Below the pieces are notes generated by a model that did not search any database, was not told where the DNA came from, and saw only the letters and a list, made by a program, of their open reading frames with translations. A DNA stretch of 64,000 nucleotides from Promethearchaeota archaeon (GTDB taxonomy: Archaea > Asgardarchaeota > Lokiarchaeia > Sigyniarchaeales > SOKP01), in the NCBI GenBank assembly GCA_030599585.1, contig JAUVNS010000002.1:345282-409281 (forward strand). The letters are read 5' to 3'. Shown here piece after piece: positions 11,057 to 55,636 of the stretch (the first letter of the stretch is position 1; every line of letters begins with the position of its first letter). Position numbers and translations under genes: made by a program.

Positions 11057-11917
11057 TCATATAATAGTAATAGAATCTTTTATTAAAGCGTCTGGAATTG
11101 ATATTAAAGGGTTTCCTTTTAATTGTAATTGATTTAATAATTTTAACTCGACGATAGAGCTTGGTAATTCTTTTAACTTATTCCCCCCCAATTTCAGAGT
11201 ACCCAACGATTTCATCTTTCCAATTGTGGTGGGTAATTGTTCCAAACAATTATTTGATAAGCAAAAGTAGCTCAAGTTTTTGAGATTTCCAACCGACTCA
11301 GGTATTGATTTCAACCGATTGTTTCTTAGTGTTGTTTCAGTTAAACCCTCGAGCCTGCCGAAACCTTCAGGCAGTTTTTCCAACTTATTGTTCTTCAAGT
11401 AAAAGGTTTTTAGAGATTTTAGTTCCCCTATTGCCTCAGGTAGCGCTTTAAGACGATTACTGGACAAAGCTAAATGGTGAAGATTTATTAAACATCCAAC
11501 TGAACTCGGTATTGAAACGATGTTGTTTTCGGCCAAATTTAGGCTATGCAGTGAGGTGACTTTTGTTAGAGGTTCAGGAAAAACTCTTAACCTGTTACCG
11601 GCTATACTGAGAACTTCTAAGAATTTCAGTTTTTCGATTGCAATGGGGATAATTCCGATTGCATTTCTATCTAAATCTAATTCTCTTAACTTTGAAAACT
11701 TCCAAACAACAAGAGGAATTGAGGATAACCGACATGATACCAAACTAAGCTCCTTGATATTCCCGCCTTCAATCTCGAGGAAGATGCGACTCGAATTACC
11801 GTCTCGCTTTTTTTCGAAATTATTGCTTATCAAATTGTCTAATTCCAAAAGGTCATAGTATTCTTGCGAACTTAACCGCTCTTTACCCTCAAAATCTAAA
11901 TCTCTTATGTTTTTCAT
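11057..11917 (-). CDS. Leucine-rich repeat protein (about 9 23-aa repeats), candidate immunity protein
   Basis: Repeated LxxLxLxxNxLxxLPxxIGx; no signal peptide; starts 78 bp after the giant ORF's stop. Confidence 0.9.
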   Translation of the reverse strand: MKNIRDLDFEGKERLSSQEYYDLLELDNLISNNFEKKRDGNSSRIFLEIEGGNIKELSLVSCRLSSIPLVVWKFSKLRELDLDRNAIGIIPIAIEKLKFLEVLSIAGNRLRVFPEPLTKVTSLHSLNLAENNIVSIPSSVGCLINLHHLALSSNRLKALPEAIGELKSLKTFYLKNNKLEKLPEGFGRLEGLTETTLRNNRLKSIPESVGNLKNLSYFCLSNNCLEQLPTTIGKMKSLGTLKLGGNKLKELPSSIVELKLLNQLQLKGNPLISIPDALIKDSITII

Positions 11918-11995
11918 AGGTAAATAAAAAAAAGTAATTTATGATAATTTAATTATAGCTGTGCCAAAATTTAATAATTTGCGATTTTGGTGTTT

Positions 11996-53738: not shown

Positions 53739-53809
53739 TTTTGATTTTTTTTCTTCTTTTTTTCTAATTCTAATTTTCTGTTTTTTAAATAAAAATAAAA
53801 AAATGGGAG

Positions 53810-55636
53810 TTAAATTTTTGTTTGGTTATTTTTTTTACTAATCCGTTTTTTGAGATTTAACCCTTGTATCACAAGGACGGCGCTGATGAGCCCCAACACG
53901 ATAAATAAGTCAAATCCTATGATTTCTGGAGTGCTTGGATTGGGATCGTTAGGGGGATTTTCTTCGGTTGCTTGATTTTCGTAGTAAATTGTGAAGGTAG
54001 GGTCATGCGACAGTTTTTCTCCGTTCCACACGGGATAATTTTGCGTTTCTATTTTGTATAGATCGTCTACCACGGTAAATGTTGAGTCAGCTGCAACTAC
54101 TTCTTCGATAGTATATAGTAAATTTAAGTAGGGAGATCCCGGATTAGATTTTTGTTCGCTGTTGCTAACTAATAGTTTGTGAACACTTCCGCCGTACGAT
54201 TCCATTTCTGTGTCCACCCCAGTTTGTGGATAATCGAATAAAGTGTAATTTTTTTTGGCGGGATTTAACAAATTAATTTCTGCAACGGTCGTGCCGTTAG
54301 ATTCGAAAGTAAAAATATCAGATAGAACCGTCAATTCTTTAGGATCAGCCTCGTTGATATCAAAAGAAGCGAGAAAATAGTTATAATGGGGTAAACTTAA
54401 CCCGTAGCCTTGAGTTGCGTTGTAAAAATCGTTATTACTAATTTTCGACATGTTCAAAGTAAAGTCTAATTCAGCTTGAGTGTCGTTTAGATTGTAATCA
54501 AATTTATAATTAAAATCTCCTGGTGAACTAAGGTCGTACGTTGTGTTATAAAAAGAAAAATATTTTTCGCTTGGAGCTTTGTCGCTATCGCTCACGCTTC
54601 CCAAGACTGGAAATTGTGGATAATCAATGTCCCAAGAGACCGTATTACTGTCAGTTAAGACGGGAGGAGAAAATTTTATTGTAGATGCTATTTCGCTTAC
54701 CGTTTTGTCGTAGGGATATATATAGTGATGCGAACTATTGGTAGTCAAATTAGTGAGTACAGGAGTATGCTCGCTATAGGTACGCCAATTTACGGCCTGA
54801 GGGGATACTCTTCCAACTCTTTCATCACTTGTCATTAGACTAAATCCAGAGCCAGAAGGATTGCCAGTTTCTCCAGCCGAATAAATACCGTCGCCGTCCG
54901 TATCTTTATAAATGATAAAATCGTAAAACATTTCTGCCCAACCGATTTTATCTTGTCTTTGGGTAGTAAATAATTGCATAGTAAGCACTATCGGCATCGA
55001 AAATTCTCCGTCGTATTGAGTTAAAGCACGAGTAGTAAATGGTTCGCGATCTACGGTCATGTTAAGCGCTTCTGTCTTGTTGTAATTGTCGCTCCAGATG
55101 TCAATAACTTCCTTTGATGTAAGATTAATTTTCGTAAACTCGCTTTCGATTTCTTGGTAATTTTCTTCAACGAACGAGTAATCTTCTTCAAATTGTTCTT
55201 CGTAATGTTCCATAGTAAGCGACCCTTCTTTTAATGCCATCCAAATTAATTGGACTGACTTACCGTAATCGATATCTACGCGATATACATCCAAATTCAT
55301 ATCGATGTTGATGAATCCTTTTATCGTTTTGTTGTTATATACGCTGTAATTTGCCTCATAATGCGTAGTCCTAGTTTCTGTAACCATCGTATTTTCGGTT
55401 ACATTATAATAGTAATGGACCGTATCTTTGATGTCCGAATAGGTGCCTGTAAAGTTGATGATAGTCGAATCACCGTCCCAGACCCGATCTAACGTAAAAT
55501 GATAAGTGGTCTCTTCCCAACTGAAATTTATTGTCGGTACTGGATCGCTTAAAACAAAAACAGGACCAAAACACGACAACACGAACACGCTTAACAAAAT
55601 CATCGATTTGATTTTTTTTTTTATCGTAATCACCAT
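53810..55636 (-). CDS. Secreted surface glycoprotein with C-terminal membrane anchor (PGF-/Loki-CTERM-like)
   Basis: N-terminal KKK plus hydrophobic signal; many NxS/T sequons; DTDGDG loop; Pro/Asn linker, then IIGFD, TM helix and KKR tail. Confidence 0.8.
   Translation of the reverse strand: MVITIKKKIKSMILLSVFVLSCFGPVFVLSDPVPTINFSWEETTYHFTLDRVWDGDSTIINFTGTYSDIKDTVHYYYNVTENTMVTETRTTHYEANYSVYNNKTIKGFINIDMNLDVYRVDIDYGKSVQLIWMALKEGSLTMEHYEEQFEEDYSFVEENYQEIESEFTKINLTSKEVIDIWSDNYNKTEALNMTVDREPFTTRALTQYDGEFSMPIVLTMQLFTTQRQDKIGWAEMFYDFIIYKDTDGDGIYSAGETGNPSGSGFSLMTSDERVGRVSPQAVNWRTYSEHTPVLTNLTTNSSHHYIYPYDKTVSEIASTIKFSPPVLTDSNTVSWDIDYPQFPVLGSVSDSDKAPSEKYFSFYNTTYDLSSPGDFNYKFDYNLNDTQAELDFTLNMSKISNNDFYNATQGYGLSLPHYNYFLASFDINEADPKELTVLSDIFTFESNGTTVAEINLLNPAKKNYTLFDYPQTGVDTEMESYGGSVHKLLVSNSEQKSNPGSPYLNLLYTIEEVVAADSTFTVVDDLYKIETQNYPVWNGEKLSHDPTFTIYYENQATEENPPNDPNPSTPEIIGFDLFIVLGLISAVLVIQGLNLKKRISKKNNQTKI

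Follow-up and report, generated by a model that had tools for sequence, protein, structure and literature searches.

What does a single archaeal protein of 13,847 amino acids (aa) do? The question is raised by a 64,000-nucleotide stretch (the window) of a Promethearchaeota archaeon of the class Lokiarchaeia (GenBank assembly GCA_030599585.1, contig JAUVNS010000002.1, positions 345,282 to 409,281), most of which is taken up by one giant open reading frame (ORF). A first-pass annotation, made from the letters of this DNA, had proposed a giant anchored toxin with a leucine-rich repeat (LRR) partner. Our comparative analysis makes it likely that the locus belongs to an integrated mobile element and encodes a polymorphic toxin-immunity system of Lokiarchaeia that acts by contact. 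This reading rests on the architecture of the protein, the exchange of its C-terminal tip, the linkage of tip and partner gene, the nuclease fold of the tip and the avoidance of N-glycosylation sequons in the tail. Four minus-strand ORFs of 608, 71, 13,847 and 286 aa had been described, and all were verified:

53810 to 55636, minus strand: 608-aa surface protein with an N-terminal signal and a C-terminal transmembrane (TM) anchor, a conserved neighbour of giants
53523 to 53738, minus strand: 71-aa basic ORF that overlaps the giant's start by 17 bp; homologs precede other giants
11996 to 53539, minus strand: giant membrane-anchored carrier protein, 13,847 aa (ORF and colinear homologs)
11057 to 11917, minus strand: 286-aa cytoplasmic LRR protein, candidate cognate immunity protein (Pfam LRR_8, E 1.6e-31)

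The source genome (G000) is metagenome-assembled and comprises 4.85 Mb in 52 contigs with 8.9% contamination; C9, C12, C23, C24 and C47 below denote contigs of this genome, and the window lies on C24. Despite the metagenomic origin and the contamination, the probability that the giant is an assembly or binning artefact is negligible, because its body is colinear with ten independent full-length homologs. The 41.5-kb frame has no internal stop and the contig no N, so the ORF claimed at the outset is real and intact, with an alternative TTG start possible three codons downstream. The homologs measure 11.4 to 14.8 kaa and come from eight other genomes and two further copies in the source genome, namely intact giants of 13,902 aa (C23:9294-51002) and 14,550 aa (C47:27050-70702). 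Identity is mostly 40 to 65%, the C47 copy being more distant, and similarity to the homologs vanishes past ~aa 13,150. From its N-terminus to its C-terminus, the giant is laid out as follows:

51572 to 53539, minus strand: basic cytoplasmic N-terminal region, aa 1-656, pI 10.0, variable among family members
50867 to 51571, minus strand: polytopic membrane anchor of 6-7 TM helices, aa 657-891 (hydropathy)
17840 to 50866, minus strand: acidic, sequon-rich, beta-rich, non-repetitive ectodomain, aa 892-11,900, pI ~4
48266 to 48751, minus strand: LamG/ConA-like lectin domain, aa 1597-1758 (Pfam PF13385, E 4.7e-10)
17633 to 18049, minus strand: conserved DxDxDG cluster, putatively Ca2+-binding, aa 11,831-11,969, at the same position in 11 of 11 giants
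16115 to 16357, minus strand: Ala/Gly hydrophobic module 1, aa ~12,395-12,475, putative membrane-insertion helices
14330 to 15082, minus strand: conserved pre-toxin hydrophobic module 2, aa ~12,820-13,070, from the alignment; the family marker
14078 to 14236, minus strand: carrier/tip junction, a KKPS..LDG..PP..NPNP..LAxKFN zone, aa 13,102-13,154, where the DNA identity of near-identical carriers stops
13550 to 14077, minus strand: linker common to several different tips; the equivalent stretch is ThiS/ubiquitin-like in some relatives
11999 to 12760, minus strand: C-terminal HNH-fold nuclease domain, aa 13,594-13,847, with its core at 12380-12526 and histidines H13698, H13699 and H13719

Most of this layout had been read correctly from the translation. 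A basic N-terminus followed by about seven TM helices had been proposed; the basic region and the TM bundle are present, and the count is refined to six or seven, with six clear hydrophobic peaks at aa 657-891, one of which has the length for two helices. The N-terminal region is 70% identical to that of the C23 paralog and essentially without match in other homologs, and an N-terminal TM bundle of 2 to 15 helices is present in all of them. The proposed acidic, sequon-rich body was borne out (163 sequons observed vs. 133 expected), as were the DxDxDG loops, located by motif scan at aa 7481, 11831, 11845 and 11964, and, by hydropathy, the Ala/Gly hydrophobic helices. Variable insert (indel) modules lie near aa 1200-1500, 2400-3100 and 7200-8200 of the ectodomain. 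Ig-like Pfam matches in the ectodomain are weak, self-BLAST gave no internal repeats, and PDB sequence searches with two variable body modules returned nothing. The stretch equivalent to the linker matched ThiS in three relatives; the ESM Atlas gave no usable match for the linker or the pre-toxin region, and so did not confirm a ubiquitin-like fold for the present linker. A soluble tail of ~790 aa with an HNH-like motif had also been claimed. The motif stands (HH...H at aa 13,698-13,719), but the exchangeable part is ~700 aa long and starts at ~aa 13,150, with the nuclease domain forming the last ~250 aa.

Is the C-terminus exchanged between carriers, as a polymorphic toxin would require? It had been predicted that bodies would be conserved while C-termini and downstream genes vary, and this pattern was found, with tip and neighbouring gene covarying. 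Rather than an invariant C-terminus, there are 14 tip classes among 36 loci (last 220 aa, single linkage), and the tips are unrelated in 38 of the 40 pairs whose pre-toxin regions are at least 60% identical. In two loci that are 94% identical across 4,755 bp, and likewise in two loci within one genome, the ANKFN motif marks the exact point of divergence; other pairs diverge within about 100-150 codons of it. The spread of breakpoints around this motif points to recombination within a conserved zone and not at one site. In the present giant, GC3 drops from 0.40 ahead of the junction to 0.32 in the tail. Tips of relatives match LAGLIDADG (three), GIY-YIG and HNH families, while the majority of the other tips are unannotated, and orphan tip/immunity cassettes occur at C23:57896-61960 and at five further loci (L082, L086, L101, L102 and L103).

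Nuclease tips of this kind can also be read as parasites. Under such an explanation the giant would be an adhesin or surface coat, selfish homing endonucleases having entered its 3' end in frame again and again, and the neighbouring LRR gene would be incidental. The LamG and Ig-like domains suit an adhesin, HNH, GIY-YIG and LAGLIDADG are classical homing families, and LRR genes are common in these genomes. We nevertheless consider this improbable, as the breakpoints fall in a conserved protein junction; the partner gene and the sequons, considered below, bear on it as well.

Several individual tips deserve mention. The two other giants of the source genome carry unrelated ones. On C23 the tail spans ~1,600 aa and is accompanied by an LRR gene in convergent orientation; on C47 it spans ~560 aa, shows by eye a PD-(D/E)XK-like motif and precedes a gene for 257 aa. 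The orphan at C23:57896-61960 (L002) encodes 1,354 aa in which a GIY-YIG-like motif can be made out by eye, and Pfam gave no hit; a 266-aa gene of the Loki LRR-associated N-terminal domain type comes next in the same orientation. At L035, L063 and L064 a LAGLIDADG endonuclease domain forms the C-terminal tip, each then followed by an LRR-type gene. In some genomes (L042, L045/L093) cassettes lie directly beside a gene that by eye is actin-like, and L038 and L082 have a common insertion site between a roadblock-type gene and rpoE.

We then consider the present tip itself. With a 35-sequence alignment, AF2 predicted aa 13,594-13,847 at pLDDT 87, whereas a single-sequence fold of the tail was useless (pLDDT 36). 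The best wide structural match of the model was the HNH domain of Cap5 (Z 5.8, rmsd 2.7, 86 residues aligned), followed by IscB (Z 4.6) and the HNH protein of phage GVE2 (Z 4.0), and the five nearest Atlas clusters were all HNH proteins. Among tip homologs, H13698 and H13699 are each conserved in 28 of 28 sequences and H13719 in 31 of 32. The tip shares with Cap5, IscB and GVE2 HNH the fold of aa ~13,655-13,765 and the HH...H pattern; unlike them, it lacks zinc-finger cysteines, varies between Asp and Asn at the second position, has an extra C-terminal helical lobe and falls below Pfam detection. A PDB sequence search with the tip profile returned nothing, and a weak match to TDH (E 0.03-0.08) was rejected as noise. 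The predicted nuclease fold, the structural matches and the histidines of catalytic pattern thus uphold the HNH-like motif noticed in the letters, and from fold and histidines we infer that the tip would cut DNA.

Since Cap5, the top structural match, is a suicide effector of CBASS, the nuclease could also be turned on its own cell. The giant would then be a receptor-effector, with an ectodomain that senses virus or contact and a tail that acts as a suicide or abortive nuclease in the producer's cytoplasm, restrained by the LRR protein. The hydrophobic helices ahead of the tail could span the producer's membrane, and LRR partners suit a guard role. However, the rapid swapping of tips, the tip-specific partners and the orphan cassettes fit kin discrimination better than defence, and this self-directed role appears unlikely to us, all the more so given the sequon counts described below.

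The downstream gene provides the next line of evidence, and the partner-gene claim is borne out by comparison. Among the family loci, similarity of the first downstream gene tracks tip similarity (Spearman 0.47; Mantel r 0.59, p 0.0005) but not carrier similarity (rho 0.03). An LRR gene adjoins the present tip class in 14 of 17 informative loci, co-oriented in seven and convergent in seven; the convergent LRRs belong to more distant tip homologs, and one further locus is cut by a contig end. Orthologs 63-66% identical to the window's LRR stand behind the same tip in five other loci at different chromosomal sites, and the tip-LRR pairing recurs where the tip is a stand-alone remnant, of 121 aa in one case and 248 aa in another. 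Over the family as a whole, an LRR gene is the next gene in 16 of 36 loci, and the source genome holds 24 LRR-like ORFs. That the LRR is a chance neighbour of the present tip was rejected, as orthologous LRRs track the tip at unrelated chromosomal sites, which an invaded adhesin would not lead one to expect. Linkage and covariation being observed, the LRR protein is a candidate cognate immunity protein that would bind the tip.

Two further LRR genes of the source genome are of note. A mobile-element-like region beside a degenerate tRNA-His half (C9:309694-343120) contains an LRR gene that shares 55% identity with that of the window and for which the genome has no cognate tip, a possible orphan immunity gene; it adjoins genes resembling NAD-dependent DNA ligase and polynucleotide kinase (by eye). 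At C32:162450-178874, a convergent LRR gene follows two large genes that encode 2,642 and 2,481 aa; by eye, the N-terminus of the second product is like that of Tc-toxin B/SpvB-type proteins. LRRs may thus partner other toxin-like loci in this archaeon.

On which side of the membrane does the tail reside? Archaeal N-glycosylation takes place at the outer membrane face. In 37 dereplicated tails there are 5 sequons against 233 expected from composition (observed/expected, O/E, 0.02). Neither set of controls shows such avoidance, with O/E 0.93 for 603 cytoplasmic proteins of the genome and 24 sequons against 27 expected in the giants' own N-terminal regions. Because sequons are avoided in tails but neutral in these controls, the tail appears to be exported past the oligosaccharyltransferase. 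The simplest reading is that tails are exported and apparently kept unglycosylated, as for cargo that later threads a membrane; the counts leave the crossed membrane, the producer's or the target's, unspecified. Permanently cytoplasmic tails, as a receptor-effector would have, should show O/E of about 0.9, and selfish nucleases invading an adhesin would not be purged of sequons.

Several observations weigh against a toxin-immunity system. Three tip homologs (L085, L091, L148) lack an adjacent LRR, about half of the tip-LRR pairs are convergent and not operonic, and LRR genes are expanded in these archaea and found in several variable regions. The loci are also related, so that the covariation statistics overstate their independence, although the contrast of tip and carrier is internal to the same loci. 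As to the tip, the structural scores are modest (top Z 5.8), Foldseek gave nothing in the PDB at E<=0.001, and Pfam, NCBIfam and PHROGs do not call it HNH. We still take the HNH (His-Me finger) fold as well supported, because the modest scores agree with one another and with the conserved histidines. Finally, an HExxH or Hint autoprotease domain was looked for in the giant and none was identified, nor was a translocation fold.

How widespread is the family? Its proteins measure 9-20 kaa, with frames carrying the pre-toxin module of up to 20,619 aa. This module, the family marker, occurs in 54 of 161 genomes of the class, and named relatives are nearly all Promethearchaeota/Promethearchaeia, i.e., Lokiarchaeia, which bears out the Asgard affinity suspected from the letters. 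A body segment matches 22 of 134 genomes of the organism's own family; among 400 genomes of the phylum, a single one outside that family had a match, so that the family is almost confined to one Lokiarchaeia (Promethearchaeia) family. Matches on short contigs of Thorarchaeota and chlamydial metagenome-assembled genomes (L154, L166) are probably misbinned.

The giant is flanked on one side by genes of a mobile element and on the other by a tRNA:

55997 to 64000, no strand assigned: element backbone module with HTH/wHTH genes, a ParB-like gene (62430-63302) and a 203-aa gene, continuing off the contig end
10852 to 10953, minus strand: tRNA-His(GUG), apparently containing a non-canonical intron (by eye), from ARAGORN and Rfam; the host/element boundary

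The same module, together with a ~600-aa surface protein and a small ORF, lies upstream of giants in three other genomes (G069, G120, G092) and on C23, where the neighbour of a backbone gene is weakly primase-like; a tyrosine integrase is encoded in a sibling module on C32, and giants in one genome (G117) have no backbone module nearby. PhnN, tRNA-His and a 150-aa gene lie side by side in nine congeners. In the source genome, however, C9 carries the 150-aa gene, next to a degenerate 3' half of tRNA-His (28/36 nt), and the tRNA-His of the window is inverted relative to PhnN. Because the native neighbour has been displaced in this way and the tRNA inverted, the cassette is placed at an integration hotspot; the element ends and integrase fall outside the assembled part, and no exact att duplication of tRNA-His was found. 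Contig-end overlaps allow a C24-(gap)-C12-C9 path, i.e., an island of ~180 kb between tRNA-His and its native neighbour, with an ambiguous junction. A 24-bp sequence between PhnN and the inverted tRNA (10744-10767), also present on C21 (three times), C39 and C16, is a possible IS-end scar. Elsewhere, a tyrosine integrase and RHH pair (L147:2218-5019), 80% and 77% identical to the C32 pair, directly adjoins a short hydrophobic ORF and a distant HNH-tip homolog, and an RHH match adjoins a pre-toxin match at L070:220-480; small integrative elements may ferry tips. At the end of C39 and at C30:1-1291, a truncated remnant of the 608-aa gene near a decayed ParB and an integrase fragment represents a decayed element copy.

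The position of giants behind a ParB/primase-like module in several genomes, the homing-endonuclease families of the tips and the tip homolog beside an integrase/RHH pair would also suit a mating or DNA-transfer bridge of the element, in which the delivered nuclease aids homing or excludes rival elements instead of killing. We give this little credence. Relaxase, VirB4/coupling ATPase and pilin were not seen in the module, which is incomplete at the contig end. Homing does not call for tip-specific partners, and one carrier bears many unrelated tips.

The co-oriented run of four genes, which had been described as a unit, is present in the window but is not a conserved operon, because homologs of the 608-aa gene, which adjoin many giants, are often divergent from them. 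No Pfam or NCBIfam family matched the 608-aa protein. The conserved ~600-aa surface protein and the small ORF beside many giants may be accessory factors, and the first-pass proposal that no separate secretion machinery is required is therefore doubtful in that form.

How does the system compare with known ones? CdiA, whose partners are CdiB and CdiI, forms a long filament tethered to the cell surface that ends in a C-terminal toxin and has variable modules in its interior; an immunity gene lies downstream, and orphan cassettes occur. The present giant is CdiA-like as a long tethered protein with a C-terminal tip, variable modules that may bind receptors, a downstream gene and orphans. However, its host has a single membrane and it is 3-4 times longer, and Pfam searches of the giant and its neighbours found no TpsB/CdiB transporter, TPS domain or haemagglutinin repeats. 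There was likewise no Pfam hit to a PT-VENN type pre-toxin domain, the junction motif being family-specific instead, and at the sequence level no RHS/YD match, neither Pfam RHS hits nor internal repeats. The archaeal analogue of contact-dependent inhibition first proposed is therefore likely in its logic, in line with the comparative tests, but not a member of CdiA or Rhs.

Bacterial polymorphic toxin systems, as described by Zhang et al. (2012; PMC3482391), include an Imm-LRR immunity class and HNH/URI nuclease tips. A conserved carrier, a variable C-terminal nuclease, an adjacent cognate immunity gene, orphan tip/immunity cassettes and a conserved pre-toxin junction are all common to those systems and to ours. 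In contrast, the present carrier is archaeal, has no known trafficking domain, possesses an N-terminal polytopic anchor, reaches 9-20 kaa and belongs to a family whose tails avoid sequons. LAGLIDADG, found among tips of the present family, has no occurrence in the searched text of PMC3482391, which also describes polymorphic toxin systems as rare in archaea, with most immunity families absent. Nucleases are the commonest toxins of archaeal polymorphic toxin systems (Makarova et al. 2019, as cited in PMC8416519). Those systems, VARTIG (PMC8416519) and a haloarchaeal contractile injection system (PMC11566945) are predicted or demonstrated archaeal conflict systems with variable C-termini, on other scaffolds; VARTIG has no toxin domain and the injection system needs a phage-tail machine.

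Aloposons of Heimdallarchaeum (Wu et al. 2022; PMC8813620) are, as here, integrated elements of an Asgard archaeon that carry giant coding sequence; their downstream tRNA and upstream partition-type gene also recall the present locus. They differ in having tandem genes for 3,000-6,000 aa in place of a single one for 13,847 aa. Upstream, aloposons have four genes, one of them for a MinD/ParA ATPase; here a ParB-like gene was found, and MinD/ParA was not found in the assembled part, the contig ending within the module. No toxin or immunity features are reported for aloposons (PMC8813620), and the body marker of the present giants is nearly absent outside one Lokiarchaeia family. The tRNA-His downstream of the present giant is inverted with respect to congeners, and for most other giants no tRNA was found downstream. 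Our literature searches, which did not cover the 2019 archaeal toxin-system survey, found no paper describing toxin giants of Loki- or Promethearchaeota or the scaffold of this family.

How might such a system work? Target binding, membrane insertion, translocation, killing and neutralisation are conjectural, and the following sequence is offered as a model. The N-terminal TM bundle would insert the protein, the remainder being exported and N-glycosylated, as topology and sequon enrichment suggest. The beta-rich ectodomain of ~11,000 aa, possibly some hundreds of nm when extended, would reach a neighbouring cell, and variable insert modules and LamG may set target specificity. The DxDxDG and Ala/Gly helical modules would then enter the membrane of the target and carry the unglycosylated tail through it, whereupon the HNH domain would cut target DNA. 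In producers and kin, the LRR protein would bind and block its cognate tip. Tip and immunity gene would be swapped by recombination at the junction zone, from orphan cassettes, as the breakpoints and orphans indicate, and killing of non-immune neighbours would favour the element's carriers. In full, this would be a toxin-delivery class not described before, a single anchored, glycosylated 'harpoon' of ~1.5 MDa with its own membrane-insertion module that moves a sugar-free nuclease between single-membrane Asgard cells, is neutralised by LRR inhibitors and is spread by Lokiarchaeia-specific integrative elements; we propose it tentatively, rating its chances slightly below even.

No other archaea have as many proteins of >10,000 aa as the Asgards, and these giants lack an assigned role (10.1101/2023.11.21.568195). 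Cryo-ET has shown 'complex surface proteins' on Asgard cells that have no assigned identity, and Asgard cell-cell contacts are mainly discussed as cooperative (PMC9834061). The family marker is present in a third of the sampled Lokiarchaeia genomes and, if true, our reading would assign those giants a function. It would also bring contact-dependent antagonism to the relatives of the eukaryotic host and point to a novel route by which a protein domain can cross an archaeal membrane. Were the harpoon to operate as outlined, kin discrimination and contact killing would exist in the lineage closest to eukaryotes.

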